This document shows positions 1 to 59,648 of a stretch of DNA of 64,000 bases, piece by piece (position 1 is the first letter of the stretch; the number at the start of each line of letters is the position of its first letter). The stretch is from Cyanidioschyzon merolae. Taxonomy: Eukaryota. The DNA lies in assembly GCA_000091205.1 (NCBI GenBank), contig AP006500.2. One strand, 5' to 3'. The notes under the pieces are model-generated. The model was not told the DNA's origin. It searched no databases and saw only the letters and a list, made by a program, of their open reading frames with translations. Made by a program: the position numbers and the translations under genes.

Positions 1-3000
1 GGCGCCATTGTCGGAACTCGTTTTCAGGTAGCTGGAGACGTTCTTGAATAAGCGTTTGGAGCTGTTGAACAGGCAAAGTGCCATGGATCTCAGGCGACGG
101 CACCCGCAGCAAAAACGGCAATCCGAAACTGTTCACCGTCGCAAGACCGCCAGCGGCGTAGTTCTCATCTTGCTGGATCCCGTACAACGGTGGTGACGCA
201 CTCTTCGATATGTGCGCAACTCGAATGAGCACACAGCCTTGGCGGGAGAGCTCTTCAGGGGTCTCATGAGGCGGAACCGGTTCCGCCAGAATCTCAAAGT
301 TTTCGCGGTTGCTATCCGGACCCAGAACCGTAACAGTGCGGTCCAAGGGTACGATACCAGCAATTATTTTCTTCTGCCACAGTTCGTGCACTCGTATGCC
401 TGCGTATTGCGACTGCAACGCCGTACGCTCCGTGACGGACAATTTCGACTCCAGTTCCCGAATCAGGTCCCCGTAGGTAGCGTTCAGCGGCAAGGCGAGC
501 AGAATTTTTCGTCCAATCATATCGATCGGCGTTGGTCGCCAAGTTATCGTCACTTCCTGCTTGCCCTCGAAGGCTTCCGCATCGGTATCGATGAACTCAT
601 AGAACAATTTCACAATTCGTTGTTTGGATACGATGCATTCGAGTATTTTCCGCGTTCGAGCACCGCTCATAGGGATCGGATCGGAATCTCTCGGATAGAG
701 AAAGTCATCTAGCGATGAAAAGCCTCTTCGATGAAAGCGAACTCGGCTAGGTCGCAGATCCTCGGCAGTGACTCCGCAAGTCTGCATCAAATCTAGACCC
801 TGCTGCTGCTGATGCAGATTGCGCAGTTTCGCGACCAGCAGAGTTCCTAACCCATACTGCGTCAACTGCGTGGATACGTTTCGTAATAGGATCTCTGATG
901 CATTCTGCTGATCTGAGCCGGGTCCCGATGCGACGGATCCCCCGCGAGAAGGTTCCTCGGTGAGAGGCTCGTCTCCTGCAGCACCGCTCATTCTCTGAAG
1001 AGTAAGCGGAACCAGTCGAACATCGCAACGGTGCCGGAGAAAGTCCCGCGCATCCCAAAACATATGCCGGTAGAGCGCGTTTGCTTGTTCCTCAACTGAG
1101 AGATCCGGATCCTGCAAGATACTTGCGAGCAGCGCAGCACTGGATACCGGTGCTTCGGAATTGTTGCCCGACTCGTTCACGTTCAGTGCCCGAGCCGTCT
1201 GATCAGTTTGCTGCCGAATAGGTGATCGTCTTCCGAATATGATAATATCTCCGCTTTGCAACTGATTACGGGCGGTCGAGAGCGCCACGTCAGAGACGAT
1301 CTCCTTGGCATCCTGACTTGTGACTTCCTCATACCAATAGAGTTCCGACAGCGGTACGCGGGGCAACACATTGCGCTCTCTGAGTAAAGCTACTAGATTC
1401 TGCATCGTGAGATGCATCGGCACAACATCCCAGCCGAGGACGCGAAGCTCGGGAGATTCCCGAGCCGGTGGATCTGCCGATTCATACCATTTGAAGAGCA
1501 TGAGACACTCTCGTTTGTCAAACAGGGCCGCCAAGCGGACCGGTTCCTGGCGGACGTCGATGAACAAGTTCACCGCATGGATCGAGCTACCCATGCTACC
1601 GGGACTTGCCCCAGCTTGATTGTTGCGGGCGATTGCTCGATCATTCCATGCCCTCTCGAGTGGCTCCTCATGGTTTCCATCGTTGAGAAGGCGACTTGGC
1701 CGAATGGTCTGATTGATGCGCGCCACAAACGTCCAAACGAGCATTCTCTGGCAAGCGTCCCCGTCGAAGTTCTCGTTCGACAGCGCACTGCTCGCATCGA
1801 TGCCTTCAGGACTGAGTACCTCTTTCAAGAGCATTTGCTTGAATTCACCCAAAAGCATACTACGTCGAACCCGTAGAATGAGGCCCTGATTCAGATCCGT
1901 CCAGTCCAGTCCGTGATAGCCCTTCTGCATTGCCGGCGTAATCAGGCGGATGTTCATCATCTGGCGCAGCTCCTCTCGTTCGCGAATCTTTTTCTCTTCC
2001 AGCTCCTTTTCCAAAGCGATTCGCTGCCGCAACGCCTCCGGGACATCAGCCTCTGTGGACGCACCCAAGTAAATGTGCGCATCCTTCTTGCGAACGTACT
2101 GGAGCATGTAAGCATTGGTAAAGCGACGTTGTGGCGGAAAGGGTACACCGTTCGCCGCGAGTGGTGCCCCAAAGTTGTCTTCAACGGCTTCAGACTCCGT
2201 AACGCGCAGGACTCGTTCGTCATCGAATTTGAACCAAATCTTAGAGCCCTCCTCCGTTCCAGGGTCCGGCCTGATATAGGCGTGGTAGTGACCTCCATGT
2301 ACGTCGCCCATATGAACTAGAACCGCATGCAACACATAAATGTATTCTTCATCGTCGGCTCCAGTGGAGCCATCTACAAACTCACCCAGTTTGATTTCCG
2401 GGTAGAATTCATAGCGATCGTTGATTTTCACCATCATATCACGATTGAAGTCGTACTCAAATCTTTTCAAGTGAAGCTGGAGAACCGGTGGTAACTTGAT
2501 GAACTGGACCCCCATTTTTGCATCCTGTAGACCGAATCCATCCGCGTAGTACTTGTTGTCGCCCTCTAACGTCTCCACCTCGATGTACTTCCGAAAAGAG
2601 TCGTACAGATCCTTGCATCCCTTCACGTTCAAAGATAGGTCATAGAAGCACTCATCGTGCGAACTCTCAAAATCGACATGAACACATTTGATAAAGCGCT
2701 TCGCCTGACCCTGAAAGAGGCGCGCGATCGTGCCCTCCAAAGGTGTGCCTTTCATGCGCTCCTCCAGTGTATCGCAGAGCAGTCGATTCAGTTCCTGCGC
2801 ATCGTGCTGTGTGAAGGCATCGGCGTCCGTCCAACCGAAAGCGTTTGTTAGCTCTTTGGTGGTCACACATTGGTCTTCATGTTGAAGATCAAAGAACACC
2901 CGCTGGAGCGCAAAAGTGAGCGGCGTCCCCGTAGAAGTCTCGGATGCAGGTGCCTGGCTGTCGAGGCCCCGATCCACCATTTCAGCCGCTTCACCTTCAA

Positions 3001-4324
3001 GCGGTGGCAGGGGCAACTCATAAACTGCGCGCCGGAACGCCCCGATGTTGTACAGCGTCTGAAGTAGGGAGTTCATATAACAAGTTGCGCCTTGATTCCT
3101 GAGACCCACAAAACCCGTCTCTCTCTTGGAGTCGTACTGCTCACTGAAAGTATACGAGTCCTTGTCGAACTCGATCCAGACGCGAAAGATAATCTGATCG
3201 TGAATGAGCCATCCAAAGCGGGGACTTTCCAACTCTGCACATGGGGCGAACTCTTGAAAGCCCCAGTCACTCTCCCGTGGCGAAAACATGTGTCCAGCCA
3301 TCTCACGCCGAATAATCGGCGGACGCACTCCAGTTTGATTCTTCAGTGCGAGCTGGAAGCGCGCATGTGATCGCCAACTCTTTTTCTGCTCCTCCCTAGC
3401 AGAGTCGAGCGGGCTACACTCCAGAAAAACAGACATGAATTTTCCCTCTGGGTCGCCGTTACCGCGTGGAAAAATCAGCAAGCGCCACTGGAACCCAAAG
3501 GCCTCCAGCCAAGGCGATGTGACGCGAAGTCGACCGGCTACGCCACCACCTCCACTACGCTGGTCCATATTCTGTCTGTACACCGGGCTCCGCAGCAGTT
3601 TGGTCACATCTCTGAGCACATATTCGAAAACAACGATAGCATTGGAAACGAGTCTACTGCATAGGTCCCGGTGGTTCCGCGTGTCCAGCTCCATATCGAT
3701 AAAGTCGCTCTCCGGCACACTGGGAACGCTGCGCATTGGACGTGCGGGCCCGATCTCATCGAAGGAGCCAGCGGTAGAGGAATCCGCAGCATTTTCCACA
3801 TCCACCACACCAGAACGAATCAGAGGCCGCATATGATCCAGACGATCGGTCGTACCGTCACTGTCTTCGCAGTTACCGTCGCCATGACTGGTTGAGGATA
3901 CAAACGAGTCCTCCTCCACGTCGTCCTCGCCTTCGCAGTCTCCCGTCTCATCGTCAGCGCGAACCCCGTAGGGCTCGGAACCCCTGTCTGGTGCTGCTAG
4001 GGAAAAGTACGGGTTCAGGGGCTGTCTTCGGACTGCTGCAGGCGCGGCTATCCGCCGCTGCGTTGTTGTTTCCCCGAGGAACGTCAACTCATCGTCACCG
4101 ACGCAGACCCACGGTTGTGTCTCGGGGCTTTGTGAACGATCCAACAACTGTTCACCGCCAGTATTCTTATCTATCCGGGCCGAATCGGGCAACATCGTCT
4201 CCATAGGAACATCTTGCGGGGAAGCGCTCAACGGCTGTTGTTCCGCAGCCGCGGGAGCGCCCAGTGCCCGAGGCTGCCGCATATCACCTGTTTGCGCAGG
4301 TGTCCGACGAGCTTGGTTCCTCAT
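1..4324 (-). CDS. USP7: Ubiquitin carboxyl-terminal hydrolase 7 (USP7/HAUSP)-like; partial, continues past the window start
   Basis: Hand translation of the minus strand reads open from about 4324 to position 1 in one frame, with a stop at 4415-4417 just upstream. It contains a MATH-like region (WRLLIFPRGN...SVFLEC...DWGF), the Cys box GLRNQGATCYMNSLLQTLY, the His box YIYVLHAVLVHMGDVHGGHYHAYIRP, then UBL-like repeats. The ORF track omits it because its stop lies outside the window. Alternative start Ms are at 4282 and 4204. Confidence 0.8.
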   Translation of the reverse strand, partial: MRNQARRTPAQTGDMRQPRALGAPAAAEQQPLSASPQDVPMETMLPDSARIDKNTGGEQLLDRSQSPETQPWVCVGDDELTFLGETTTQRRIAAPAAVRRQPLNPYFSLAAPDRGSEPYGVRADDETGDCEGEDDVEEDSFVSSTSHGDGNCEDSDGTTDRLDHMRPLIRSGVVDVENAADSSTAGSFDEIGPARPMRSVPSVPESDFIDMELDTRNHRDLCSRLVSNAIVVFEYVLRDVTKLLRSPVYRQNMDQRSGGGGVAGRLRVTSPWLEAFGFQWRLLIFPRGNGDPEGKFMSVFLECSPLDSAREEQKKSWRSHARFQLALKNQTGVRPPIIRREMAGHMFSPRESDWGFQEFAPCAELESPRFGWLIHDQIIFRVWIEFDKDSYTFSEQYDSKRETGFVGLRNQGATCYMNSLLQTLYNIGAFRRAVYELPLPPLEGEAAEMVDRGLDSQAPASETSTGTPLTFALQRVFFDLQHEDQCVTTKELTNAFGWTDADAFTQHDAQELNRLLCDTLEERMKGTPLEGTIARLFQGQAKRFIKCVHVDFESSHDECFYDLSLNVKGCKDLYDSFRKYIEVETLEGDNKYYADGFGLQDAKMGVQFIKLPPVLQLHLKRFEYDFNRDMMVKINDRYEFYPEIKLGEFVDGSTGADDEEYIYVLHAVLVHMGDVHGGHYHAYIRPDPGTEEGSKIWFKFDDERVLRVTESEAVEDNFGAPLAANGVPFPPQRRFTNAYMLQYVRKKDAHIYLGASTEADVPEALRQRIALEKELEEKKIREREELRQMMNIRLITPAMQKGYHGLDWTDLNQGLILRVRRSMLLGEFKQMLLKEVLSPEGIDASSALSNENFDGDACQRMLVWTFVARINQTIRPSRLLNDGNHEEPLERAWNDRAIARNNQAGASPGSMGSSIHAVNLFIDVRQEPVRLAALFDKRECLMLFKWYESADPPARESPELRVLGWDVVPMHLTMQNLVALLRERNVLPRVPLSELYWYEEVTSQDAKEIVSDVALSTARNQLQSGDIIIFGRRSPIRQQTDQTARALNVNESGNNSEAPVSSAALLASILQDPDLSVEEQANALYRHMFWDARDFLRHRCDVRLVPLTLQRMSGAAGDEPLTEEPSRGGSVASGPGSDQQNASEILLRNVSTQLTQYGLGTLLVAKLRNLHQQQQGLDLMQTCGVTAEDLRPSRVRFHRRGFSSLDDFLYPRDSDPIPMSGARTRKILECIVSKQRIVKLFYEFIDTDAEAFEGKQEVTITWRPTPIDMIGRKILLALPLNATYGDLIRELESKLSVTERTALQSQYAGIRVHELWQKKIIAGIVPLDRTVTVLGPDSNRENFEILAEPVPPHETPEELSRQGCVLIRVAHISKSASPPLYGIQQDENYAAGGLATVNSFGLPFLLRVPSPEIHGTLPVQQLQTLIQERLQLPENEFRQWR

Positions 4325-7344: not shown

Positions 7345-10300
7345 CCACAGATGCTCAAAGAAACGGTATCAGAAAACCCACTGGATGCGAATTTTCCATA
7401 CCCTTGATATGAGCCGTGGTGAAGCGACATGGATGGGCAAAGAGAAAAAAAGGTGCCTCCCCAGGAGACCGTCACGAGCTGGACATTTTCGATTCCGCAT
7501 TGATAGGCGAACGCTTATGACAGGAGCGACCGGTACTCGCCTCTCTCGGCAACAGCTCTTTCGTGAAAAACGGAGGATCTAACCGTAGATACGCAAAGCG
7601 GTGCGAAATGCCTCTCGTAAAGCCTCGACCGGTGAGCGTAGCGACGACAACATCAGCCCCAGCGGCGATTCAAGCATGTAGTCGCCTGAGTATCGGCAAA
7701 CAGGCAGACTCAAGCAACACGTCTGCCTCCCTTCTTCGAAGCACTCTGTGGCCTCTGCTTCTCGCGTTATTCTGTCCTGCGGGTAGGCCACGTTGCTTGC
7801 TGTGACGCAAAGGCGCTCCACGAGTGCGCAGCTGAGACGAGCGTTGAGCTGGTGTTCGCTTCAGCCTGGAAGTGCACGCTCAGTCCAGTTGGAAGCGTCT
7901 TCTCTGTCCTCCGTCGCCATGCTTTCCCTCAGGATGCGTTCCATAAAAACGCTCGGATGCGTGACGCTGTCCTTGGACAAGTCGTTTTCAGTCTTCGTCA
8001 GCGTTGAACGACTCTGGTGCTGAGCGGGTCGCCTGCGGGGAGGGATCGGTGAAGCGCGCCTCAGGCGTTTGGCACGCTCGCGGCTGAGAAGCTCGTGGAA
8101 AAGGCAGCTGCGGGATCGGAAACATATATACGCGGGGAGGCAAGTTGCTGGCTCGCCGTCCATCCACGGGGTCTGACTGCCGGTGTAAGAAAATGGAAGT
8201 GGAGTGCGACGTGCACATCCACGCTACCCGCCACGAAAGGAGAATGCGAAGCAACCACCTGACAGAAAAGAGAAGGATCCCAGCCGCAAAGAGGACGACG
8301 AGAGTCAGGAAGGAAACCCTGCGCACTGGAAAGGCCAGTCCGAAACCAGCGCCTACACGTCGGTGCCAGAACGCATCAACGGAAAAAATTCTCCGAGTAC
8401 GTGAGATGCCCAGGGCTATTAGGTATTGCGTAGAATGTGGTTGTCGGAAGGCTCGCCTAGCTCTCCCCGAATGGATGCCCCTCGTGCAGCAACTGGCGGC
8501 AAGGGTTTCGGAGGCAGCGCTGCCAGCAGTTCGCATTCGTAGGGAGTTTTTGGTCAAACCCTCGAGCGACAGCACTAGGAATGCTCCGCTCCGAGCATGC
8601 CAGCGGGCCTGTTCGTGGTGTCATTGACCAATACACACGCTGGCCGGCATCCGTTTCTGCGCTGCACTACATGGTTGCTCGGCCCATGGACAGCGTAGGT
8701 GCCAGGAAAAGTTTCGCCCAAACCTCAGAACCCATAGCCAAGAGCGGGTCCGTGGCGACTACCCTACGAGGCGCACCCCAGAGGCGTTGTACTCGTTGCG
8801 TCCACAGCGTTGTGGTCGACGAAATGTTGGCGACTGACGCAAGCGGCTCTTGGGATGTCCGTGGAGGCACGTGACGAGCTGGCTCCGGACGAGAAGGTGC
8901 TGGAAGCGAGCTCGGAGATGTCGCATCGAGAACGAGCGACGCTCCAGATCGTCCGAGCTCATGGAGTAGGTTTCTGTTCCGGAGCTGGGCACGTCGTCTC
9001 GGAAGGATTACGCGGGCGTTGACCTGGCCTAACTTGCATCCTGCGCTGCTAGGTTTTCGCGAACGCGGCGCTCCACCGCAAGGCAGACCCTCTGGTCGTA
9101 TGTGAGCGCCTTTGCATCCTCAAACCCCTGGTCGATACGGTCCCCGCATTTCGGGGCAAAGCCCATGATACCACCGTGCATATTTGTGTGGTGTACGACG
9201 TCCTCAGTGGTCTACGATGTGTGCGCACGAGCAGCTAGGGGGCACTCTACCTATTTCGGGCAGAGCGTTGGCGGGGCTCGTTCATCGCCACTCGTTGGCT
9301 GGGAAAACACGGAAAGCGATGTACAGGGGCCTTGGAGACGCGCACGGCACATCAAACAGCATGCACTTTGCGAAACCCCGGCCCGCTCGGAGCAACGAGA
9401 CTCATATTCAACCGCTTACGGAAAACGAACGTGAAGGCTTCGTGGTGCGCGTGGATGCCGTTTCTGAGGGCGCCGTGGCCGTCACCGTGCCCGTTCGTCA
9501 CGGGGCAGCGCCAGAGACCTGAACGGAAAGCAAATGAGTCTGCTCCACGCCTCCAGGGCCCGGTATCATCCGGAGTTGGACGTGAACGACGCCAGCAGGC
9601 GTACCAACTCGTGGAATGACGACGTAAAGACCTGTCGTGACGCGCTGAGTACGGTATCGGGCAAAAGGAGATGCACTGCGCACCTCATTCATAACGGGTA
9701 TGAGCGACTAGATCGCTCATGCGGACGAGCCATGGCAGAGGAACGCGGGACCGAGCTCGAGTCTCCAACAGTCGCAACCGCTCGCGGGCACGAGGCGGGT
9801 ATTCGCAAGCTTCCTCAAAGCACTGGAAACGGAACTGGCCGATCGGTTGCATCTTATAAAGATAGTGCATGGCGGTGGACGCGCTCTAGTTGCAGAACTG
9901 GACTGTCGTCGATAACGCACAAGGGATCCGCGAACCGGCACTGAAGTGCTCTCGGTGATGAGCTCTGGACGAGATTCTCACATCGCGAGCACAGAGACAC
10001 GCTGAAACTGCCGGTGAAGACGATTTGGAAACGGAGCCAGACGTATGAGATGACGTACGCTGAGTTCATTGAGCTCCAGGTGGCAATGCACTCACAGTTG
10101 AGACGCTTGCTGTGGAGTGTCTCCATCACGAACGGGAAACGCGTCCAGTTTCTGAACCGAGATTTGAGCGCCCATATCAGCATCTGGAACTGCATCGTTC
10201 TTCAGGAGCGTCCATCGGCTTTACTTCAGGCGAGGCTTCGATTCGATTGTCTAGTATGCAGTGTGGGTATTGTGCTGGAATGCTGCGGACTCTCGATGAA

Positions 10301-10432
10301 AAACATCATGTATCATCAGAGCGGCGATTAAGTCCCCGCTTGGAGCAAGCCACTTGTATGGTACGGTCTGCACTGTATCAAGGCCGGACTGCCATATACC
10401 TTCGCCACGAACAATGTTCGTGGGTAATTGTG
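7345..10432. repeat. Copy 1 of a 3.09 kb near-identical direct repeat; copy 2 is at 31227-34313
   Basis: The same ORF translations appear at 7385-10474 and 31226-34323. Similarity starts at CAGATGCTCAAAGAAACGG and stops after CGTGGGTAATTGT in both copies. Only a few SNPs or indels differ, for example near 9470 versus 33353. No recognisable coding content. Confidence 0.85.
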
Positions 10433-10775
10433 GAACACTCATCGTATTCCTTACTTGGGTATTACGGAGTATAGCGCTGTAGCAAACGAGGCTGGCGCTG
10501 CAGTGCGTGGCATTCAAACATGACTCTGCGCTGGCCTTGAATTTCGTCCGGGCGGCATTCCGGTACAGTCTCGAAAACTTTCTCTGTGCAGCAGCGTGCA
10601 GCTGTCTGCAACTTTAGTTTGAGTTACCGCGCTATTACGTTCATATTCTGTACAGCACTCTTTTGCAGCGGTAGAGCTAGTTCTCTGTACAGCTGCGTAC
10701 TTTTATATATATATGAATACGCTCTGCGGGGCGAAAATGTTTCGCGAACATGAGGTAAACTCATGTCCAGTCACC

Positions 10776-11310
10776 GACGCCTTCCGGCCTTTATTGGCCG
10801 GCCCCGTGCCATCGGTGTCAGCTTCTCGTTGTTAACTTCAAGTACAAGAGGCTGCCCCAAAAAGCTCGCCCGCGTTAGCTCCTCGGGTGTTGTCTTCAGC
10901 GCCGCATATCCTTTAATATTGATGGCGGCGTTAAAGTGACTTTTCAATTACTCCCTGCGTCTAATGCCTCTGGTGGAACTCACCAATGCAGGGATTCCTC
11001 AAAATTCGTGCCCTCTGCGCTGGTACGGTATCATCATCATCCCGTCCGTTAAACACCGTTTCTCGCATACCTACCGTGTTCTTTTCCGCCCCACGGTCTG
11101 CAAGGCGAGGTCTCCTTTCGATTTTTTCCGCCAGACAGCTATGACTCGCCTCCAGGATCCCTGACAGCCGTATCAATGACGCTCCCTTCGATTTTGTATT
11201 TTTGAAAATGAACGCATTTCATATGCATCTGTGCTATATATCGTGGTAAAGGATTTGATAACATTGAACTGAGTGCGGAACGCAATTTAAGTGAGAACTA
11301 TGAACTTATG
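10776..11310 (-). mobile_element. Fanzor/TnpB-remnant MITE-like element, copy D (non-autonomous, decayed)
   Basis: The minus strand encodes ...HFNAAINIKGYAALKTTPEELTRASFLGQPL followed by the conserved 3' block ...CCGATGGCACGGGGCCGGCC...GGCGTCGGTGACTGG. About 0.5 kb is homologous to copies C and E. The inner (5') boundary is approximate. Confidence 0.6.
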
Positions 11311-12527
11311 TAGCGTTAAATGTTACACAGGCACATGCTTGATGCAAAATTCGGGAGCGGCGCCCAATGATGTTTCTTGTACAGTTGCAGAAAGATTTAT
11401 TCAACTTTGTTTAGCTTAAGCTTTTCCCGAGATGTGAGCATCGCGCGTCTCCTGCACGGGGACCCTGAAGCGCTGCCTTGCACGTCTTCCGGCATAGAAT
11501 ACTTTCAGTGTTTGCTTGGCAGTCAGTTCTGAAACGGGGAGAGAGGCATCGCGACGAAGACGCCGCAGTGTAAGCTGCGAAGAACACTGACAAGTTTATG
11601 GTGCACGCTGTAGCACCAGCGCTTCGAGTTGTGCGCTTTTTGGAGAAGTCGTGCTACGGTCTCTTTCAGGCTCCTTGTTCCCGGGGTTGCAGCACGTTAC
11701 GACCACCTGGTGCTGGACGGGCTAGTAACGTGAGAGCACCTCGCGAGCTGCCGTTTGAGAAAGAAGAGCACGCAGTGGGTTTACCGCGCCTCGCTTCTCT
11801 GGGCACCGCAGCCGTTGTGGGTCCAGCGGCAGCTTTTGTCTCCGCTATGGTGATATCGTATGCCCTGACTTTTTGGCAACACTCCACTAACCTAAACAAG
11901 TCCAAATCAAGAGGCTAAGGACGCTCAGACAGGAGCATTCTGTGCACTTGGACTCTTCGGGACTCCCGGCAAGCCGCGGGTGACGAGCGCGCCCCGGCTA
12001 CAACGCAGCAACCGAAGTGGAACAGATGAAAGGCGTTTCTTGGAAAAAATTTCTGGCAAAGAACTCAAATTTTCGATACGCATAATCTCCCCGATGTTTC
12101 GGACTTAGGTACAGGGCTGGTCGTGAAGCACAGAGGTTTTGTCTTTCTATCGAACTTCGAAAAGTTGCTTATCCGGCGCGAAATCCGCATGCAATGCCTT
12201 CCGGGCCATTCTATCCAGCAGATAAGCGTCATAGAGGCGTTTCACGACGCTTTCGCTACTCTTACCTCATTTCAGAGCTTATCAACCTGAACGATTCCAT
12301 TTCAGAATGGAAATCAAGACCTTTCGTAGCCGATACCATCGAGCTGCGCAGAAAAGCGGTATATGTTGCGTGGTTCCCAACTGCGTATCCCTTTCAACTA
12401 AGTTTAATTTCACCTCCGCTACCGCGCTTACCACGAGATCAAAACCACTAGGCACAGTACCGTACAAATCGTAGACGAATTGCCTGTAGAATATATTTTT
12501 ACTGAACAGTGCAAGGAGAACTGCAAT

Positions 12528-13757
12528 TACCCTGCAGGTCAGTCACACCATATTACTCGCGTGGTGGTAGAGCACTTTAAGAAAGAGTTACATGCGCTCC
12601 GCATCAAAACCCGATATTCTCAAAGAGCACTTGCGTTTAATGGTAGAGAATGACCTGTTAATCACCTGACTGAAAGCAAAAGCGAGGATCGTGGTCGCCA
12701 CCTGCTTCTCTGTTTCTCAACCGGTAGTTCATGTAATGCTGAAAAACTGGCAAACAGTCGCAAAAAATCCCTGTTCACTCAAGGCCATCTTTTTACCGAC
12801 ATCGCAGTTAAAACAAAGTTCCTGGAACGTCATTATCGGCATGAAACAGAGGGGCGTCGGTTTGTTGTTTCAGTCGATGAGACTCCCTTCGGACAAGACG
12901 GTCGGGTCGTTGATGAGTATTCGAGGTGAAGGGAGCCCATTGTCTGTGCGATCGGACTCAAAGAGAACGACGATATTATCTGTTCTAGCTGTAGTGGATT
13001 CAAGTGGCGGCCTGGGTTTTGCTGGAACAGAAGGCCCTCACAACAGCACCAACAACTTTGTCGAATCATTGAAGACTTTTCCCAGACGTCCGGCGACTTC
13101 GTTCTGTTGGACAACGTGGTACTTCGCCATTCCCGTTGCGTTCGGGCTTTTGCCGAGGCTATCGGAGTAGAGATGCTTTTCATTCCTTCGTACGCTCCGC
13201 GGTTCAACCGCATCGAAGGAGAGTTTTCTATCAAAAAAAGCAATGCACGCACCACTATTCGAATCGATGATGCGTTCAGCACACGGTGACACGCCGGAGC
13301 CAATTTTATTTTGCTTGCGCAAATACTGCTCTTTTGGGGAAGGTCCCCACCTGAAGACATAACGAAGTGCGTTCATTTGAAGAAATAAAAAATCTTAGGA
13401 ATGAGCTGGGGTGTACACTTGAGAAGTTCGAGATAAAGAAACGCCAGCGGGCGCTTCGGCGAAAGAAAAATACGGAGAGCTTACAGAGCAGCATATGGCA
13501 CGAAAGGCGCAAGTTCGAATACTACTTGTACTCGGAACACGAGCGGCGGCAAGAAACGCATGGAGCTCGTGATCCGAGGCTTGAACGCTGCTATCAATAT
13601 CAGGAGATATTCTGTGTTGAAAACAAGGCCCGCAGGGATAACGCGTGCCAATTTTGTGGGATTGCCTCTCAGAGTCAAAATGCTCAAGGACGAGCTGATA
13701 CCGATAGCAGGGGGCCGGCGAAAAAGATATCGGAAGGTGTCACAACGTCGCTGGAAA
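12528..13757 (+). mobile_element. Tc1/mariner-like element with DDE_3 transposase remnant plus Fanzor/TnpB-like C-terminal remnant, copy A (decayed)
   Basis: The 5' end (12528-12700) is homologous to the reverse complement of 56235-56090 in copy B. It contains the DDE_3 signature VLLDNVVLRHS...FIPSYAPRFNRIEGEF and then the RuvC-III-like SGGKKRMELVIRGLNAAINIRRYSVLKTRPAGITRANFVGLPLRVKML. The 3' block CCGATAGCAGGGGGCCGGCGAAAAAGATATCGGAAGG is conserved. The 3' boundary is uncertain. Confidence 0.6.
12691..13289 (+). pseudogene. Tc1/IS630-family (DDE_3) transposase pseudogene, frameshifted
   Basis: ORFs 12691-13170 and 13107-13289 lie in different frames. The motifs DN..H and P.YAPRFNRIEGEF match the Tc1/IS630 DDE_3 C-terminus (D...P.YSPDLNPIE). 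Confidence 0.65.
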
Positions 13758-25800: not shown

Positions 25801-26547
25801 TGCAAAGCGGAGACGTAGAATTCCATGGAAATGATTGCAGCAGTGATTGGAGTTCGAACCCAGCATCCGTTTCCATGCAAGCAGAACAGACGGGATCCTG
25901 TAACTGCACATCTCGTAAGAGTAACTGGGCCACATTTGAATGGCGTTTCACTGATGGTAATGAAGAGAGGTGGATTCGACGTGCAAAATGAATCAATCAT
26001 GTGAAGAGGTAATTTGATTGAATTTTCTGCATGAGCTTGTGAGCAAAACGTGAATGAACGACATCGAGTTTTTTACTCGTCTATCCATCAGAGCGAATCT
26101 TGTGCCCACGTGTAGCCCAGAAACAGAACTTTCGAGTTCTTGAACACTCCGGAATTCGAGCATCCTGGTCATAAGGGAAATAGAAGAGTGAAGGGATGCA
26201 CGTATGAACTGTTTCATGATTTCGTATATTTTACAGACCCTTGTTTTACGACATCGCGGTTCTGCTTAATTTCGGTCATTCAACGAATTGCACCGGTAAA
26301 AAGTGGAAGGAACCACTCCGGAAAGAAAATCGAGAACTCTTAAACTACGTATGAATCCGTAAAATTTTAGTCATGATATTCGAATGTCGACAATGTTCAC
26401 CTGAAACATTTTCGGAGAAAAACAAAAGGTATGAGCAGACCGAGCTGTTCAGTGTTCTGTTCTAACCTGACACTGGTGTATATGTATGTTCAGTAAAACA
26501 ATAAACTTTCAAGGACCCTAGAGTGTCTATACACACCCAATCACATA

Positions 26548-27095
26548 CGCCTCCCAGCATGTTTTGGCCGGTCTCCTGCTATCGGCCTCAGTTTCTCTTT
26601 TTACACGTCGACCCTGAGAGGCTGTCCCACAAAGTTTGCCTGCGTCAGCTCTTCGCGTCTCGTCTTCAGCGCCACACATCGTCTGACATTGACGGCGGCG
26701 TCTTATTCTCGGCTTAGAAAATCCTTGGGTTTATGGCGATTGGTTGAGGTCACTACTGCAAGGAATCGCAGAACAAGCGCCCTCTGTGCCACTGTACTCT
26801 CGTTATCGTCTCTTCGGGCGAAAAACTTTTCTCGCCTGCCTCCTCTTTTCCTCATCCTCTTCGTCACTTGCTCGTCTTCACTCGATGGTCAGGGACGGGA
26901 GGATCTTGAAGCTTCTCCGACATCAGGCAATGACGGCCCTGCAAAATCCCTGACTTCCATATCCATACCTCTAACTTGGATTTTGTACTTTTTAAAAATG
27001 ACGTACTTCGAGCTCATTTGCTATAAACCGCGAAAAGGCATTTAATTACACGCACATGAGGTCGATCACACTTGAGGTGAAAGAATATTCGGACC
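26548..27095 (-). mobile_element. Fanzor/TnpB-remnant MITE-like element, copy E (non-autonomous, decayed)
   Basis: The minus strand encodes ...*DAAVNVRRCVALKTRREELTQANFVGQPLRVDV*. The 3' block is ...CCGATAGCAGGAGACCGGCCAAAACATGCTGGGAGGCGTATGTGATTGG. The region 26920-27080 is homologous to 59995-60170 and to 11130-11300. Confidence 0.6.
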
Positions 27096-31226: not shown

Positions 31227-34200
31227 TGCACAGATGCTCAAAGAAACGGTATCAGAAAACCCACTGGATGCGAATTTTCCATACCCTTGATATGAGCCGT
31301 GGTGAAGCGACATGGATGGGCAAAGAGAAAAAAAGGTGCCTCCCCAGGAGACCGTCACGAGCTGGACATTTTCGATTCCGCATTGATAGGCGAACGCTTA
31401 TGACAGGAGCGACCGGTACTCGCCTCTCTCGGTAACAGCTCTTTCGTGAAAAACGGAGGATCTAACCGTGGATACGCAAAGCGGTGCGAAACGCCTCTCG
31501 TAAAGCCTCGACCGGTGAGCGTAGCGACGACAACATCAGCCCCAGCGGCGATTCAAGCATGTAGTCGCCTGAGTATCGGCAAACAGGCAGACTCAAGCAA
31601 CACGTCTGCCTCCCTTCTTCGAAGCACTCTGTGGCCTCTGCTTCTCGCGTTATTCTGTCCTGCGGGTAGGCCACGTTGCTTGCTGTGACGCAAAGGCGCT
31701 CCACGAGTGCGCAGCTGAGACGAGCGTTGAGCTGGTGTTCGCTTCAGCCTGGAAGTGCACGCTCAGTCCAGTTGGAAGCGTCTTCTCTGTCCTCCGTCGC
31801 CATGCTTTCCCTCAGGATGCGTTCCATAAAAACGTTCGGATGCGTGACGCTGTCCTTGGACAAGTCGTTTTCAGTCTTCGTCAGCGTTGAACGACTCTGG
31901 TGCTGAGCGGGTCGCCTGCGGGGAGGGATCGGTAAAGCGCGCCTCAGGCGTTTGGCACGCTCGCGGCTGAGAAGCTCGTGGAAAAGGCAGCTGCGGGATC
32001 GGAAACATATATACGCGGGGAGGCAAGTTTCTGGCTCGCCGTCCATCCACGGGGTCTGACTGCCGGTGTAAGAAAATGGAAGTGGAGTGCGACGTGCACA
32101 TCCACGCTACCCGCCACGAAAGGAGAATGCGAAGCAACCACCTGACAGAAAAGAGAAGGATCCCAGCCGCAAAGAGGACGACGAGAGTCAGGAAGGAAAC
32201 CCTGCGCACTGGAAAGGCCAGTCCGAAACCAGCGCCTACACGTCGGTGCCAGAACGCATCAACGGAAAAAATTCTCCGAGTACGTGAGATGCCCAGGGCT
32301 ATTAGGTATTGCGTAGAATGTGGTTGTCGGAAGGCTCGCCTAGCTCTCCCCGAATGGATGCCCCTCGTGCAGCAACTGGCGGCAAGGGTTTCGGAGGCAG
32401 CGCTGCCAGCAGTTCGCATTCGTAGGGAGTTTTTGGTCAAACCCTCGAGCGACAGCACTAGGAATGCTCCGCTCCGAGCATGCCAGCGGGCCTGTTCGTG
32501 GTGTCATTGACCAATACACACGCTGGCCGGCATCCGTTTCTGCGCTGCACTACATGGTTGCTCGGCCCATGGACAGCGTAGGTGCCAGGAAAAGTTTCGC
32601 CCAAACCTCAGAACCCATAGCCAAGAGCGGGTCCGTGGCGACTACCCTACGAGGCGCACCCCAGAGGCGTTGTACTCGTTGCGTCCACAGCGTTGTGGTC
32701 GACGAAATGTTGGCGACTGGCGCAAGCGGCTCTTGGGATGTCCGTGGAGGCACGTGACGAGCTGGCTCCGGACGAGAAGGTGCTGGAAGCGAGCTCGGAG
32801 ATGTCGCATCGAGAACGAGCGACGCTCCAGATCGTCCGAGCTCATGGAGTAGGTTTCTGTTCCGGAGCTGGGCACGTCGTCTCGGAAGGATTACGCGGGC
32901 GTTGACCTGGCCTAACTTGCATCCTGCGCTGCTAGGTTTTCGCGAACGCGGCGCTCCACCGCAAGGCAGACCCTCTGGTCGTATGTGAGCGCCTTTGCAT
33001 CCTCAAACCCCTGGTCGATACGGTCCCCGCATTTCGGGGCAAAGCCCATGATACCACCGTGCATATTTGTGTGGTGTACGACGTCCTCAGTGGTCTACGA
33101 TGTGTGCGCACGAGCAGCTAGGGGGCACTCTACCTATTTCGGGCAGAGCGTTGGCGGGGCTCGTTCATCGCCACTCGTTGGCTGGGAAAACACGGAAAGC
33201 GATGTACAGGGGCCTTGGAGACGCGCACGGCACATCAAACAGCATGCACTTTGCGAAACCCCGGCCCGCTCGGAGCAACGAGACTCATATTCAACCGCTT
33301 ACGGAAAACGAACGTGAAGGCTTCGTGGTGCGCGTGGATGCCGTTTCTGAGGGCCCGTGGCCGTCACCGTGCCCGTTCGTCAAGGGGCAGCGCCAGAGAC
33401 CTGAACGGAAAGCAAATGAGTCTGCTCCACGCCTCCAGGGCTCGGTATCATCCGGAGTTGGACGTGAACGACGCCAGCAGGCGTACCAACTCGTGGAATG
33501 ACGACGTAAAGACCTGTCGTGACGCGCTGAGTACGGTATCGGGCAAAAGGAGATGCACTGCGCACCTCATTCATAACGGGTATGAGCGACTAGATCGCTC
33601 ATGCGGACGAGCCATGGCAGAGGAACGCGGGACCGAGCTCGAGTCTCCAACAGTCGCAACCGCTCGCGGGCACGAGGCGGGTATTCGCAAGCTTCCTCAA
33701 AGCACTGGAAACGGAACTGGCCGATCGGTTGCATCTTATAAAGATAGTGCATGGCGGTGGACGCGCTCTAGTTGCAGAACTGGACTGTCGTCGATAACGC
33801 ACAAGGGATCCGCGAACCGGCACTGAAGTGCTCTCAGTGATGAGCTCTGGACGAGATTCTCACATCGCGAGCACAGAGACACGCTGAAACTGCCGGTGAA
33901 GACGATTTGGAAACGGAGCCGGACGTATGAGATGACGTACGCTGAGTTCATTGAGCTCCAGGTGGCAATGCAGTCACAGTTGAGACGCTTGCTGTGGAGT
34001 GTCTCCATCACGAACGGGAAACGCGTCCAGTTTCTGAACCGAGATTTGAGCGCCCATATCAGCATCTGGAACTGCATCGTTCTTCAGGAGCGTCCATCGG
34101 CTTTACTTCAGGCGAGGCTTCGATTCGATTGTCTAGTATGCAGTGTGGGTATTGTGCTGGAATGCTGCGGACTCTCGATGAAAAACATCATGTATCATCA

Positions 34201-34313
34201 GAGCGGCGATTAAGTCCCCGCTTGGAGCAAGCCACTTGTATGGTACGGTCTGCACTGTATCAAGGCTGGACTGCCATATACCTTCGCCACGAACAATGTT
34301 CGTGGGTAATTGT
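31227..34313. repeat. Copy 2 of the 3.09 kb near-identical direct repeat
   Basis: See copy 1. It starts about 300 bp upstream of the RRM gene start and ends about 290 bp before the DUF1517 gene. Confidence 0.85.
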
Positions 34314-34605
34314 TAAACTATAATTGTGTTTCATTCATCAACATGACGGAGAATAAATCCACCAATCACATAACATGTACAAAACGTACAGACCGATTGG
34401 GCTGCAATCACCTCGGCAGGTGCGGAACGGGCACCGCATCCCCGAGGTGAGCCTGGCTCTCTGGAGCGGGCGCGCTGAGAACACCGGCCAGTAACGGGAT
34501 CACTCCCACGCGAAGCGCTTCGAAATACCAAAGAACATTCTTCGTTTCGTTGAGCGTTAAACGGCATTGCCACGTGAAATTCCTCTCGTTTGGAAGTAGA
34601 CGTTT

Positions 34606-52264: not shown

Positions 52265-55034
52265 GCAGTTGCATACAAAGCGGGACGGTTAGCGCTCTGC
52301 TGAGTAACGATAGGCAATAACTTTGTATCGAAAACAGCAAACTCGCTTGTAGTGCGATCGAGATGCTATATAAAAATGGATCTTTTTGGACATCAAATCC
52401 GAGTCGCCCACACAAACGGCGTGGGGGAAAACCCTCGTTGCCTGCTATGGCATATGCACGTCGACTTATGTCGGAATGAAATGGAAAAGTCCAGCCAACT
52501 CGGGGTTAAACTTTCAGACTTTGATCACTTGGGACTGTAATCAACACCAGCTTGTACGAAATTTCTCTTCGACTACCTTCGTGTCTTTCTCTCGAATCGC
52601 TGACTTTTAATACGTCGGTATCTCCGTGCTCTCAAGGCCCATATTTTGCTGTCCAAAGACGTTGATGGCAGCCTTGAAGTCCCCATTTAGCAGCGCCCAG
52701 CTATTGACGACGCATTTTATGCTTAGGAGGACGTCGCGATTCACGAATCGCTTCCCATTTTCATCTACTTTGTATTCAGCCCAGGTCTGCTCTTCGTAGG
52801 GGTGAAACTTGACCGCGATCACGTGTTCCATTGTGTCCGCTAAAATTACTCCTCCTGCGGATGCCACGCTGTGGTTCACGAAAGCTTGGTTCATAGCGCA
52901 TTATATGCCTTTGATGAGCATAGATGGCTCCGTTCGCCATTTTGATCAGCTTCTGGACCCGGTGCCACACCTTACGATAACAGGCTTTCTCTGGGCGATC
53001 CCCTCGGGGAGTATTCTTTCCACTGTACACGCAAGAGCTCCAAGCTCCATTCCATAGCTTCCTATCTGGCTCCTTGCGCGCTCTTCGTTTTCTGCCTACT
53101 CTTCCCATAAATCCTGCCGATGAGCTTGATGGGCATCAAGGTACCTGAACCGATCAAGAGCAACGTGTCCGCACTTTCCATGCGCTTTCGACAAGGCAGT
53201 AACGGCCTATGAAATTCGTTCCTGTTTCGCTCCCTTGAAGTAACATTCTCTCATTCCGTTCCTTCTCCTAAAAAAGAACATGAAAGGTGTGTGAGTAGAA
53301 CACAAGAATGTAGGTAAAATTCGGAGCGTTGGAGACATCCGGCTCTCGAGCGTGGCCGTTGACGACAGGGGTCGGTGTCCTCTTCGGGTGTCATGGAATC
53401 GCAGTTGCAAAGGCTTATCCTCCATGGATACATGCCGGTGCAGTTCGCATTGAGGACAAAGTTCGCAGGACTATGCATCCGCATTGCTCGGCGCTGCTCG
53501 GCGTAGCTCCCTTTCTGGGCATGGGTACATGTGCGCACTGTCGGTCATGAAGCGTGCAGGACGTTCGTGGATGGTGTTGAATGTTGCCTCGCCAGCGGTC
53601 TCGATGGAGGGCAACTGTTGCCCTATGTATAGTGCAAACCGCCTGTACCTCCCTTTTTCTTCCCATTCGCATCTCTCTTTGCTTTCAGTCGATTTTTGTT
53701 CATCCAACAGTTTACAAGTTCCTTCTAAGCTTCGAGTGAAAATTGCAGTGTTCCCTTCATCATGTCTTCGCCCGCAAACATCTACTCTTCGTTTTCAACG
53801 CTGTCGTTTTCCACCGGACGCATCTACGCCTAGTTTGCGAGGATGCCCCCTCTACAATGAAGCGAAAAGCGCGCGAATCAAGACGCTGGTATAAAAGACC
53901 GAGAGATTCATTCGAATTAGGCAAGATTATTTCCGTTAGGGGCGCTGGAACAGCACGCCACATGCAGAAGCACCATCGCTTTCGTGTGCGGGTTACTCAC
54001 AGGTGGTGGATCCACCTTATTCTCGGCGTCGTCGCGCTTGAAGGATCTTCTATGGAGGTGCTTCATGGACTAGGTATTCTGCGAGCCTATTAAGCCTCGC
54101 CGAAGAGCCACTTGTGAAGAGCTATCTCATGCTGCTGACTGAGTTGCCGACCTCTGACTATGCTGCATCGAATCCCCCATGTTGGGAAGGAGACTGACAG
54201 CTGATTGGCAATTCGAAGTGAATAAGAACAGAAACCAGCACCCAGCGAGAAATTGGATGTGCGTTCCTCTCTTCCTCCTGCATAAGATATTGAGGAAGAA
54301 CACTTTACGTGTATTTGGAAGTTTATCTTATACGCGAGAGGTCCGTCGAGACGAAGCACTCTACCGGACGAGTCCTTCGCGCGCTCCCCGGGTTGGCTGC
54401 TTTCGCGAAACCTGAACATATCGTCTGGAACGCAGTTTTCTTTCTGGCTACGAGTTGGCGGACTGTTTCTGAACTTCGCCACGGTCGCTGTAATCTCCCA
54501 GCTTGTCGTTTCGCGCCGCCTGCAGCCTGTTTGAGCGACCTTCTGAATCCCAGAATGAGGATGAGTTTCGACCCTGCGTCGGGTAAAGCAATTTGGTGCC
54601 GACGCCCCCATGGTATGGCAAAGCCCTTCTGTCCCCGTGCTGCATCCTCACCGGCGCTGTGGGCCTCATTGTGAACGCTCACAGCTGGCTCGACGCACGA
54701 TGGAGCGATTGGAAAGACAGTTATCTTAGAGAAGAATGATATGTACAACCTGGTGGAAATTTCAGGCTGGGCGATATGATGGACGGTTTCTCGGATGCCG
54801 TGATCAGTCGCGCAGTTAAACCCCTCTGTCAGTGTAAATATTTTGTCGTTTAAAAAATTAGAAAAAAATCACATTCGACGCGCCGCTGTTCGAAGTGATC
54901 AGATAATGAATGCTGTAGCAAAAAGATGGACAGAGTCTGTGCTGTCCTATTTATACAAATCGTCCGTGGAACAAACAATGTTTTACGAGCATGTGGAATA
55001 AATTAGTATCCACTCACAGATGCCTTCCATCCTT

Positions 55035-56235
55035 TTTAAGCGTCCGACTGCTATCGGCTTCAGCTTCTCCAAGCGCATTTCGACTCTGAGAGGTTGCCCC
55101 AAAAATTTGCTCGTGTCAGCCCCTCGGGTACCGTCTTCAGCACCGTACATCTCCTGACATTTATGACAGCGTTCCAGTCTCGATTCACGAACTCCATGCA
55201 TTTCTTGCCGCTGTTTGAACTCACCAGTGCAAGGAGAACTCGCGCGCCTGCCTTTTGTACCATTTGCTGCTTCGTCAGCTCTGGGTGCCTATCTACCACC
55301 GAAGCGCTCCGCTGCCTTTCCGCCATCTCTACCCTCTGGAGTGTACATCAAAGCTCATCCCTTAGAGTTTTTATTTTTTCTAACTGAATGCACTTCTTTA
55401 TGCCACCAGGAGAGGATCTTTTCCGAAAGAGAAGCATTTGCGGAAGACAGATGAAATGTGCCAGGATATGTCACTGTGTGCTGAAAGGTTCAGCGAATCG
55501 CATATTGGAGCGATCATTACCTGTCACAATAGGGAACATTCCTTCGATGGGGTTGAACCAAGGATTATACGGAGGACTGAAAAGCAGTTTTGCCTGGATA
55601 GAATCTGCAAAATCTCGAACACTAGCGGAATGATGAAATATTACGTTGTCCAAAAGAAGATCGTCGCCAGCCTTCATGGAAACGTCTTCAATGATGCGGC
55701 AAAGTGGGTGCTGTTGAATCAGCCTTCTCTACGAGCGAAACTGAGGCCGACAATAGTATCCACTACATCTAGAACAAATGATGATATTCTCGTTCCCTTC
55801 GAGTTCGATCATACGAACAATGGGCACCCTGCTCAGCGAATACCCATACACTTTCCGATCGTTCCGTGAGAAGAAATCTCACAGACTGAAACACATCTAG
55901 GTTCCACTGCTTCATACCGATCGCGACGTTCATGGAACTCTGTAGATGCATTTTCGGTGGAATATGGCCTTGCGTGAACAAGGACTTTCTTGCGACTGTA
56001 TCCCAGTGTTTTCAGTACCACACGAACAAGCTGTTGAGAAAGAGAGACTCCCGTGGTGACTGTGATCGACGCTTTTGCATTCCGCAAAAGGTGATCAACG
56101 GGTCGTTTTCTACCACTGACCGCAGGTTCTCTTTTAGAGTATCGGGTTTTGGCGCGGAACGCGTATTATTGTTTCATTCAGAGTTCCTCCACCACCCGAG
56201 TACTGTGGTATGACTAACCTAACGGTGGAATTTGG
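55035..56235 (-). mobile_element. Tc1/mariner-like element with DDE_3 transposase remnant plus Fanzor/TnpB-like C-terminal remnant, copy B (decayed)
   Basis: Minus-strand order: HTH-like fragment (ORF 55833-56087), DDE_3 LLLDNVIFHHS...FSPPYNPWFNPIEGMF (55677-55471), then RuvC-III-like SNSGKKCMEFVNRDWNAVINVRRCTVLKTVPEGLTRANFWGN...QPLRVEMRLEKLKPIAVGRLKRM (55326-54983). The 3' block ends ...GGATGGAAGGCATCTGTGAGTGG. The 5' end is homologous to 12528-12700. Confidence 0.65.
55438..56087 (-). pseudogene. Tc1/IS630-family (DDE_3) transposase pseudogene, frameshifted (part of element B)
   Basis: ORFs 55833-56087, 55769-55981 and 55471-55677 on the minus strand lie in shifted frames. DN..H and P.YNPWFNPIEG match the DDE_3 C-terminus. 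Confidence 0.65.
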
Positions 56236-59147: not shown

Positions 59148-59648
59148 AGCCGGTGAATGATCGCAGGCGATGCACGAAGCACGCGGCGGTAGCGGTAGGA
59201 GTTCTGTGCTGTTCCATATATACGGCGTTGTCATACGTTTGCAGTCCGTTTGTTACGCGGCAAAGAAGGATTAATATTCAACTCAGAGCAGGTCATGGAA
59301 GTCGATTCAATTTTGCCATTCAATGTCAAATTTTGTCATTCATGGACGCTTGCCTCATGTTCTTGGGTGGCTCGACTCGCACTCTCGTCGCTAACGCATC
59401 GGTACGGAGCAGTTCTGAGCTCATCGCGGCACAGCGTTCCGTCGATTTCAGGTAAAGCGCAACTGGGCATACGCTGCAAGTTGAATAGGATATTGGTTTA
59501 CTTGGACCAAATGAAGGGGTCGTTGAGCCCAATAAGTTTATCCAGATGCCCTTCCACATAAAGGAATCGATAAACTTCGGAACTGTGTTTCAGTTATCAG
59601 AAGGACCAAAAAGCGTTCTACAACCATGCAGTCCAAATACCCGCTTAC

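Follow-up and report, generated by a model that had tools for sequence, protein, structure and literature searches.

A 64-kb stretch of Cyanidioschyzon merolae DNA (64,000 nucleotides of contig AP006500.2; hereafter the window) holds three short repeats, C, D and E, and two longer relatives, A and B, all of which carry pieces of a Fanzor gene. A first-pass annotation of the bare sequence took the short repeats for deletion derivatives resembling MITEs (miniature transposable elements with inverted repeats), a form thought compatible with movement in trans by a Tc1 transposase and with selection for the omega-RNA (guide RNA) of their 3' part. What are these short units, which parts of the parent element do they keep, and what could have moved them? 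Comparison with the published CMe-1A element indicates that C, D and E are very probably relics of a non-autonomous, internally deleted subfamily of the CMe-1 family of Fanzor1 elements. They are real but ordinary, being decayed relics of a transposon that has been catalogued in this genome since 2013. Two things go beyond the 2013 description: the existence of a deletion subfamily, and the association with an IS630/Tc1-type transposase.

The deletion subfamily and its parent

Sensitive blastn within the window showed that C, D and E are mutually homologous, with 62-64% identity over 527-596 bp (E-values 2e-39 to 4e-56), which bears out the claim of three related copies of about 0.55-0.6 kb at these sites. 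A three-way alignment shows homology that begins and ends at the same columns, between unrelated flanks. When a DNA profile of the three copies was run on the window, no further full-length short copy came up.

CMe-1A is one Fanzor1 family described in C. merolae 10D by Bao & Jurka 2013 (Mob DNA 4:12; PMC3627910). Its consensus measures 3169 bp, and each of the roughly 150 copies has ~80% identity to it. It was reported without terminal inverted repeats (TIRs), with the target-site duplication undetermined and the classification 'unknown', and the first 635 bp of its consensus are another repeat, TE-N2_CMe (PMC3627910). The consensus was taken from supplementary file 2 of the same paper. Its open reading frame (ORF; nt 906-3110) encodes 734 aa ending in ..KRMEFVNRDFNAAINIRRCAVLEKRPPELTRENFVGQPL.., in agreement with the C-terminal consensus of five window copies, ..KRMEFVNRDWNAAINIRRCAVLKTRPEELTRANFVGQPL... 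Two proteins encoded in the window are identical to BAM82586.1/XP_005538622.1 and BAM82583.1 of C. merolae 10D, the host genome of CMe-1A, and the window proteins are of plastid-type and eukaryotic housekeeping kinds.

When the CMe-1A consensus was compared with the window by blastn, each short copy matched in two separate blocks: nt 787-967 and 2840-3081 in D, 787-1007 and 2833-3083 in E, and 788-972 and 2809-3083 in C. Identity within the blocks was 66-70%, with E-values of 4e-18 to 4e-30. Finer alignment resolved the short copies as CMe-1A nt ~776-1067 joined in frame to nt ~2836-end. The mapping of breakpoints that the first-pass annotation had called for therefore gives a single join, ~1067/~2836, in all three copies, and its view of them as non-autonomous internal-deletion derivatives of a Fanzor-bearing element is supported. 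The missing part (nt ~1068-2835, 1.77 kb of the ORF) corresponds to Fanzor aa 55-643 and includes RuvC-I and RuvC-II. At the protein level ..RRxxDE(I/T)V is followed directly by (M/V)A(R/Q)R..VRG.., and the nucleotide string GACGAGA.TGTA.TGGC.C.GAGGG spans the join in C, D, E and a fourth copy, L023, from a metagenome contig. The consensus of these four copies has an intact ORF of 139 aa. We also considered, and rejected, the deletion as a spliced intron (GT...AG) and the copies as processed retrocopies: the direct 1067/2836 join fits slightly better, the gene is reported to be single-exon, and the 5' UTR and 3' tail ends are identical to those of copies that carry a transposase.

Each short copy, 0.56-0.60 kb long, is built from four parts (Table 1): ~125 nt comprising the 5' end and 5' untranslated region (UTR), the first 54 Fanzor codons, the last ~92, and a 3' tail of ~55 nt. 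Frameshifts and stops occur in all three window copies; in D, tblastn places the C-terminal remnant at about CMe-1A aa 651-725. This anatomy changes the earlier description in several respects. The units had been located correctly, but they extend ~50 nt further on the low-coordinate side, because the tail 3' of the Fanzor stop codon belongs to them. The termini and the last ~92 codons are retained as had been said, but so are the first 54 codons. The stretch CCCTGAC.TCC.TATCCATA...TTTTAAAA...TGCTATAAACC, quoted as part of the shared sequence, is the region around the Fanzor start codon plus the 5' UTR, read as reverse complement (ATGGATATGGAAGTCAGGGAT...), and does not belong to a 3' block. 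A shared 16-nt 5' motif is real in D (at 11273) and C (at 60126), not at 11286 and 60150; in B it lies at 56152 rather than 56155, but inside the transposase-like block, and is not the positional homologue, the true shared 5' block of B being 56317-56393.

The short copies are remnants of a Fanzor gene and not Fanzor genes. Of the Fanzor1 motif D-X(125,275)-[TS][TS]-X-X-[C4 zinc finger]-X(5,50)-RD (PMC3627910) they keep only the final RD segment (consensus NRDFNAAINI), and both RuvC-I (DPGxxN) and RuvC-II (VDEFRTS) of the full-length family fall inside the deleted part. A profile of nine family proteins matched the SpuFz1 structure 8GKH (E-value 1.2e-6; profile 300-668, chain residues 653-1007), which makes the parent family a homologue of an experimentally characterised Fanzor. 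Neither the short C-terminal fragment nor a single full-length family protein gave a Pfam or PDB match.

Two features of the full-length proteins emerged alongside. In the family protein alignment the usual CxxC...CxxC zinc finger seems to be absent between VDEFRTS and NRDFNAAINI, where two scattered cysteines are found (..HHELGCTLQRVEMEKCQRS..); this apparent lack would raise the question of whether the CMe-1 Fanzor nucleases are active. In addition, an 80-bp unit of the Fanzor ORF (CMe-1A nt 2117-2196) occurs in 1 to 4 tandem copies among full-length elements (loci L004-L082), adding peptide repeats like ATQKVQDNDLVVDA.KHEE.KEA just before the RuvC-I region (P0031, P0036, P0040).

Further copies were found in metagenome contigs. 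A scan with the C-terminal peptide gave at least 405 related stretches, of which the best 79 loci were retained; such a scan favours the best-conserved (younger, full-length) copies, and most of the retained loci are CMe-1A copies of this younger sort, with 80-90% identity to the consensus. A single additional short copy, L023 (= L070), came directly from the scan, and it is non-orthologous to the window. When the mini-ORF consensus was searched against a protein collection, 30 predicted proteins were returned, and many of them run across the junction; those from further loci read ..RRDDDETVVAQRA..VSSTSGN..EFVNRDFNAAINI.. there. Altogether nine solo short copies (C, D, E, L023, L097, L099, L100, L104, L105) and four composites with the same junction and a transposase block (L083, L095, L098 and L102, with L083 found through a search for that block) were collected. 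The short-unit profile aligns unbroken over the junction in all added loci, none of which matches the window at 85% identity or more.

The junction is common to at least 13 non-orthologous loci with unrelated flanks, which points to one ancestral deletion followed by amplification. Mean pairwise identity among the 13 short-type copies is 0.66, the pairwise values are star-like (60-67%), and each copy has 71-82% identity to the consensus; such a pattern is expected where a single master copy gave rise to a burst of copies that then decayed. A single in-frame internal deletion in a CMe-1A-type element thus left a ~0.58-kb unit, which then spread to many unlinked sites and has since decayed roughly neutrally. 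The added copies come from hot-spring metagenomes, so that this is not a count for the 10D genome itself; contigs of two such samples are 99.8-99.96% identical to the window. Younger CMe-1A copies start at ~655 or carry TE-N2 at 1-635, and have a ~45-nt longer tail that ends ...GAAAGGCG and is followed by TTTGTT.... By this contrast in start and tail, the window copies represent an older subfamily. Their full-length relative, the 3.2-kb CMe-1A, has no copy in the window.

Element ends and the transposase-bearing sister copies

The ends of the elements are consistent. With 14-16 copies aligned, homology starts at (TA)TRGTCTTTCAMCTCAATTGTG and stops at ...CGTAGAACGTTTTTCGTTTTACTGANCA(YA), and the sequence outside is unrelated; the 5' end reads TA followed by TRGTCTTTCA, and the 3' end ...TTTTACTGANCA followed by YA. 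In the 5' flank, position -4 is T in 9/15 copies, -3 is A in 9/15 and -2 is T in 12/15. In the 3' flank, +3 is A in 9/14 copies, +4 is T or C in 13/14 and +5 is A in 7/14.

The same ends enclose a transposase gene in other copies. Between A and B identity is 72% over 1320 bp; with the short copies they share only ~260 bp on one side and ~75 bp on the other. Both score above the cut-off of 28.6 bits for Pfam DDE_3 (PF13358), A with 32.3 and B with 40.8 bits. The DDE transposase is a pseudogene in A and B; from C, D and E it is absent, as the first-pass annotation had said. A consensus of three copies restores a nearly open IS630/Tc1-type transposase (..FVVSVDETSF..LLLDNVVFHHS..FSPPYNPWFNPIEG..), and the reconstructed product of ~205 aa matches IS630/Tc1-type transposases of ~295 aa (PF13358, PF01498) with 35-45% identity. 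The block forms a separate family and recurs in L044, L083-L088, L089-L094, L095, L098 and L102, and in inverted orientation in L100; at least eight loci hold it inside the same ends.

The DDE block is always preceded by the common 5' end together with ~85 nt from the start of the Fanzor 5' UTR. What follows it differs. In A, B and L044 it is followed by Fanzor nt 2737-end, with no N-terminus, while in L083, L095, L098 and L102 it precedes the remaining 5' UTR, the N-terminal codons, the 1067/2836 junction and the C-terminus. The latter four are therefore the short element with a transposase block of ~1 kb at UTR position ~860, and the comparison of short copies with a DDE-bearing sister is one of clean presence or absence of that block. 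The first-pass annotation had implied A and B as parental elements of C, D and E. This does not hold, because the Fanzor breakpoints differ (2737-end versus 776-1067 plus 2836-end); A and B are a parallel sister derivative. No clear signature of nested insertion, such as TIRs of its own or a TA duplication, surrounds the DDE block, and a possible direct repeat of 7-8 nt around it (TATAGCAG versus GCATAAGC) is ambiguous. D (-) and A (+) stand head to head, 1.08 kb apart, an arrangement that recurs in the non-orthologous locus L100 at 1-1140 (-) and 1262-1848 (+), ~120 bp apart.

The short copies encode nothing able to move them, so they would have been mobilised in trans through their retained ends. 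An IS630/Tc1-like DDE transposase is, tentatively, the most likely provider. It is favoured because the block sits in the 5' UTR of sister copies with the same ends, because four of these have the same deletion, and because the flanks are TA-like. The proposal of trans-mobilisation by a Tc1 transposase is thus tentatively kept in a corrected form, with presence or absence of the block in place of descent from A and B. The following observations weigh against it. No TIRs were found: the 5'-end consensus aligned to the reverse complement of the 3'-end consensus scored 6, against a mean of 7.0 for shuffled sequences, and 92% of shuffles did at least as well. Scans for TIRs in individual copies gave short pairs only, at non-homologous positions. 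No target-site duplication longer than 2 nt flanks the copies; where TA duplications had been proposed for testing, both ends are flanked by TA-like dinucleotides, which cannot be told from conserved element ends and fit a decayed TA duplication or, equally, conserved terminal bases. TATAG is also internal in the longer CMe-1A consensus. Finally, the 48 non-redundant younger copies included no intact transposase and none that joined a transposase to a full Fanzor gene.

The strongest symmetry between the ends is a 5-nt TGGTC/GANCA at most. Inverted pairs seen in individual copies (D 10678/11280, E 26500/27078, C 59581/60129) were rejected as TIRs, as their positions are non-homologous and they vanish in the consensus; a subterminal inverted match of CMe-1A 703-722 to its own 3' end, noticed by eye, is missing in the old subfamily, which starts at ~776. 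Similarly, a 6-nt direct repeat, TTCATA, flanking D is unmatched in other copies and within chance expectation. A (TA)n microsatellite at 10702-10720 directly adjoins the 3' end of D and interferes with reading a target-site duplication there. Tc1/mariner/IS630 elements have a DDE_3-type transposase, TIRs bound by it and a TA duplication; C, D and E have neither the transposase nor TIRs, and their flanks are TA-like as described. Since they have no TIRs, they are not MITEs in the strict sense; the label 'MITE-like' applies loosely, in view of their shortness, their multiple copies, the consistent boundaries of the nine solo copies and, in the window, the decayed ORF remnant.

Table 1. Coordinates of CMe-1-related elements and neighbouring repeats in the window
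Feature	Position	Strand	Remarks
Short element D	10721-11302	-	CMe-1A blastn, tblastn, junction and end alignments, coordinate mapping
D, 3' tail	10721-10770	-	
D, stop-codon equivalent	10771-10773	-	
D, remnant of last ~92 Fanzor codons	10774-11027	-	includes ..FNAAINI.. (RuvC-III motif region)
D, deletion junction	~11027	-	
D, remnant of first 54 codons	11028-11177	-	start codon decayed to ATT
D, 5' UTR	11178-11300	-	flanking CA at 11301-11302
Short element E	26488-27089	-	blastn among copies and to CMe-1A, tblastn, junction alignment, coordinate mapping
E, 3' tail	26488-26540	-	
E, stop codon	26541-26543	-	
E, C-terminal remnant	26544-26796	-	
E, deletion junction	~26796	-	
E, N-terminal remnant	26797-26966	-	ATG kept
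E, 5' UTR	26967-27087	-	
Short element C	59596-60156	-	blastn among copies and to CMe-1A, tblastn, junction alignment, coordinate mapping
C, 3' tail	59596-59648	-	
C, stop codon	59649-59651	-	
C, C-terminal remnant	59652-59906	-	
C, deletion junction	~59906	-	
C, N-terminal remnant	59907-60035	-	ATG kept
C, 5' UTR	60036-60154	-	
Copy A	12381-~13800	+	sister derivative; 3' end approximate
A, shared 5' end block	~12381-12439	+	with internal deletion
A, IS630/Tc1-like DDE block	~12440-13400	+	decayed
A, Fanzor C-terminal remnant	13401-13755	+	CMe-1A 2737-3096; tblastn aa 612-721
A, tail	to ~13800	+	
Copy B	~54960-56393	-	sister derivative
B, 5' end block	56317-56393	-	
B, IS630/Tc1-like DDE block	55360-56316	-	decayed
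B, Fanzor C-terminal remnant	55017-55358	-	CMe-1A 2737-3083
B, tail	~54960-55016	-	
TE-N2_CMe copy	54224-54847	-	blastn to CMe-1A 5-635, 65% identity, E-value 5e-65
3128-bp repeat, copy 1	7346-10473	+	99.0% identical to copy 2; GC 58-59%
3128-bp repeat, copy 2	31229-34355	+	99.0% identical to copy 1; GC 58-59%

Guide RNA, mini-protein or neutral remnant

Bacterial non-autonomous IS200/IS605 derivatives keep the transposon ends and the omega-RNA. By analogy, the short elements might be eukaryotic counterparts, guide-RNA satellites kept and spread because their 3' part encodes an omega-RNA that recruits Fanzor from full-length copies; we regard this as unlikely. In its favour, a long 3' piece survives in the short family (at least 275 nt of ORF plus tail) and likewise in A and B (360 nt), and a small hairpin recurs directly 3' of the stop codon with different stem sequences. 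Characterised Fanzors take their omega-RNA from the 3' end or 3' UTR, where it can overlap the end of the ORF (PMC10432273, PMC10530073). Since only ~55-60 nt follow the stop codon, the scaffold here would need to overlap the retained coding part.

The measurements argue against such satellites. Among the 13 short-type copies, conservation is lowest in the 3' tail, at 0.51 compared with 0.66 in the UTR and coding remnant. In the 48 younger copies the tail reaches 0.74-0.77, a level like that of third codon positions, and these positions are conserved no more strongly over 2836-3060 (0.72-0.80) than elsewhere in the ORF (0.70-0.81). Protein constraint of the ordinary kind is seen at positions 1-2 in these copies, inflated there because the sample was selected by C-terminal protein similarity. 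RNAalifold on 25 3' ends gave -5.5 kcal/mol with 9 pairs, one of them covarying, and a covariation term of almost nil. In sliding windows over the younger copies the structure conservation was low throughout, and z-scores against mononucleotide shuffles were notable only at 3020-3169 (-2.5) and 841-1050 (-2.1 to -2.9); against dinucleotide shuffles, the last 141 nt of ten copies scattered from -3.5 to +1.1. The apparent covariation of the hairpin after the stop codon was no better than in shuffles (Fisher p = 0.05; 2/14 copies below 0.05), and Rfam gave no match. Moreover, 5' UTR and N-terminal codons make up about half of a short copy, and a guide-RNA role leaves the retention of these 290 nt unexplained. 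For the same reason the claim that exactly the putative omega-RNA region and the ends had been kept fails, and selection for an RNA-coding part finds no support in a least-conserved tail, an absent third-position rise and structure tests that are null or marginal. By analogy with TnpB and Fanzor, the retained 3' part could conceivably hold an omega-RNA, but the present results lend this no support. A more elaborate proposal, in which CMe-1 is a TIR-less Tc1/IS630 plus Fanzor1 system and its 0.58-kb derivatives are 'ends + guide-RNA' satellites, would have their omega-RNA loadable by full-length Fanzor, their copying done by the DDE enzyme or by Fanzor-triggered repair, and the N-terminal and 5' UTR part acting as promoter and left end; this we consider decidedly improbable.

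Over the 13 copies, conservation is 0.665, 0.673 and 0.636 at the three codon positions, 0.657 in the 5' UTR and 0.508 in the tail. At least one in-frame stop is present in 10/13 copies, and no copy has a long uninterrupted ORF beyond the mini-ORF. On these sequence measures the short copies have decayed about neutrally. Some observations pull the other way. In the C-terminal part, positions 1-2 (0.685) slightly exceed position 3 (0.638), a contrast lacking in the N-terminal part, and some metagenome copies keep intact mini-ORFs (P0098, 143 aa; P0100, 152 aa; also P0103). Because of these two observations, which amount to a faint coding signal at most, a past coding role of the mini-ORF retains some small probability. 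It is nevertheless very unlikely that the deletion made a functional mini-Fanzor of ~140 aa, a basic N-terminus plus the RuvC-III segment, kept by selection as, for example, a regulator or inhibitor. The in-frame deletion, the intact 139-aa consensus, the intact mini-ORFs and the slight position 1-2 excess would suit such a protein. However, an in-frame join is expected by chance in 1/3 of deletions, most copies, including all three in the window, are interrupted by frameshifts and stops, the contrast among codon positions is slight, and the product could not be a nuclease because RuvC-I and RuvC-II are missing.

That the similarity stems from segmental duplication or from independent recurrent deletions, and not from mobile units, is hardly credible: three copies within 50 kb of one chromosome in a window rich in CMe-1 debris, and a possible ATGG/GTG microhomology at the breakpoints that could favour recurrence, are outweighed by the identical junction at non-orthologous loci, metagenome contigs from other places among them, by the star-like identities and by flanks unrelated on both sides of every copy, which largely refute a duplication. 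The inconsistent boundaries or larger duplication that the first-pass annotation had named as a refuting outcome were not seen in the copies collected here; homology stops at the same two positions throughout.

Neighbouring repeats and relation to known systems

The window contains five old CMe-1 derivatives, one TE-N2 and two copies of a 3.1-kb repeat. This is ~10x the density expected from ~150 CMe-1A copies in 16.5 Mb, making the region a local island of transposon debris between intact housekeeping genes. The TE-N2_CMe copy lies ~110-170 bp downstream of the 3' end of B, in the same orientation. TE-N2_CMe recurs ~20-170 bp from the 3' or 5' end of CMe-1-type elements, in the window and in L077, L083, L089-L094 and L104, and a short element in L104 is flanked on either side by TE-N2 sequence. 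Because TE-N2 repeatedly adjoins such elements, the published CMe-1A consensus, which opens with 635 bp of TE-N2, may be a composite; the proximity could reflect a shared target preference or nested insertion. In L089-L094 (for example L090:312-1783 and L093:121-1595) a 5'-truncated DDE block runs straight into a copy of TE-N2 (78% to consensus). L090 and L093 share the internal junction of this chimera and differ in their upstream flanks, which would fit its having been copied to more than one site.

The 3128-bp repeat, whose first copy ends 250 bp from short element D, carries on its + strand a decayed Fanzor-like frame with 28% aa identity to CMe-1A aa 445-692, including ..FLNRDLSAHISI... 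It has no long ORF, and its DNA matches neither CMe-1A nor any fetched locus. It may be a second, far more divergent Fanzor family that was recently moved or duplicated.

The deletion subfamily, at no fewer than 13 loci, shows which parts of a Fanzor1 element suffice for propagation, namely ~290 nt of the 5' side and ~330 nt of the 3' side. The short unit is thereby a natural minimal construct for the cis requirements or omega-RNA production of a red-algal Fanzor, and the current view of Fanzor biology is unchanged unless an RNA is shown.

Compared with IS200/IS605 derivatives, the short copies are likewise a TnpB-family element cut down to its ends and a 3' region that normally encodes the guide RNA. 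They differ in their eukaryotic host, the absence of subterminal hairpins at the ends, the half made up of 5' UTR and N-terminal codons, and the lack of RNA support. Like MITEs and other internal-deletion non-autonomous DNA transposons, they are mostly below 0.6 kb, keep both ends, are dispersed with unrelated flanks and have no transposase of their own; unlike MITEs, they are without TIRs, are of modest copy number and retain a remnant ORF. Independent surveys based on TIRs and target-site duplications (P-MITE) detected none in C. merolae (PMC3964958).

Fanzor1-carrying Mariner/Tc1 elements have been described (PUl-1, PUl-2 and PGv-1; PMC3627910), as have Fanzor1c-Mariner/Tc1 associations (Jiang et al. 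2023, PMC10530073). As in these elements, the DDE-bearing CMe-1 copies have a DDE_3 gene upstream of and co-oriented with Fanzor within one pair of ends, and TA-like dinucleotides at both flanks. PUl-type elements have TIRs of 24-33 bp and clear TA duplications, whereas the consensus of 14-16 CMe-1-type copies has no TIR. In contrast to the Mariner/Tc1-Fanzor1 elements, the CMe-1 sample holds no copy that joins an intact transposase to a full Fanzor, and its DDE gene is a presence/absence block in the 5' UTR. The occurrence of the same ends around an IS630/Tc1-type DDE gene, with TA-like flanks, nonetheless suggests that CMe-1 belongs with the Mariner/Tc1-associated Fanzor1 elements, though without TIRs.

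The closest relative is CMe-1A itself (Bao & Jurka 2013). Neither the deletion subfamily nor a CMe-1A transposase is mentioned in that description (PMC3627910). Relative to CMe-1A, the short copies start at consensus position ~776, not at 1 or ~655, have a 3' tail ~45 nt shorter, and are older (~71-82% identical to their own consensus, ~60-63% to CMe-1A). They nevertheless share with it the genome, the family, homology in two DNA blocks, the absence of TIRs and the common C-terminal peptide ..KRMEFVNRDFNAAINIRRCAVL...

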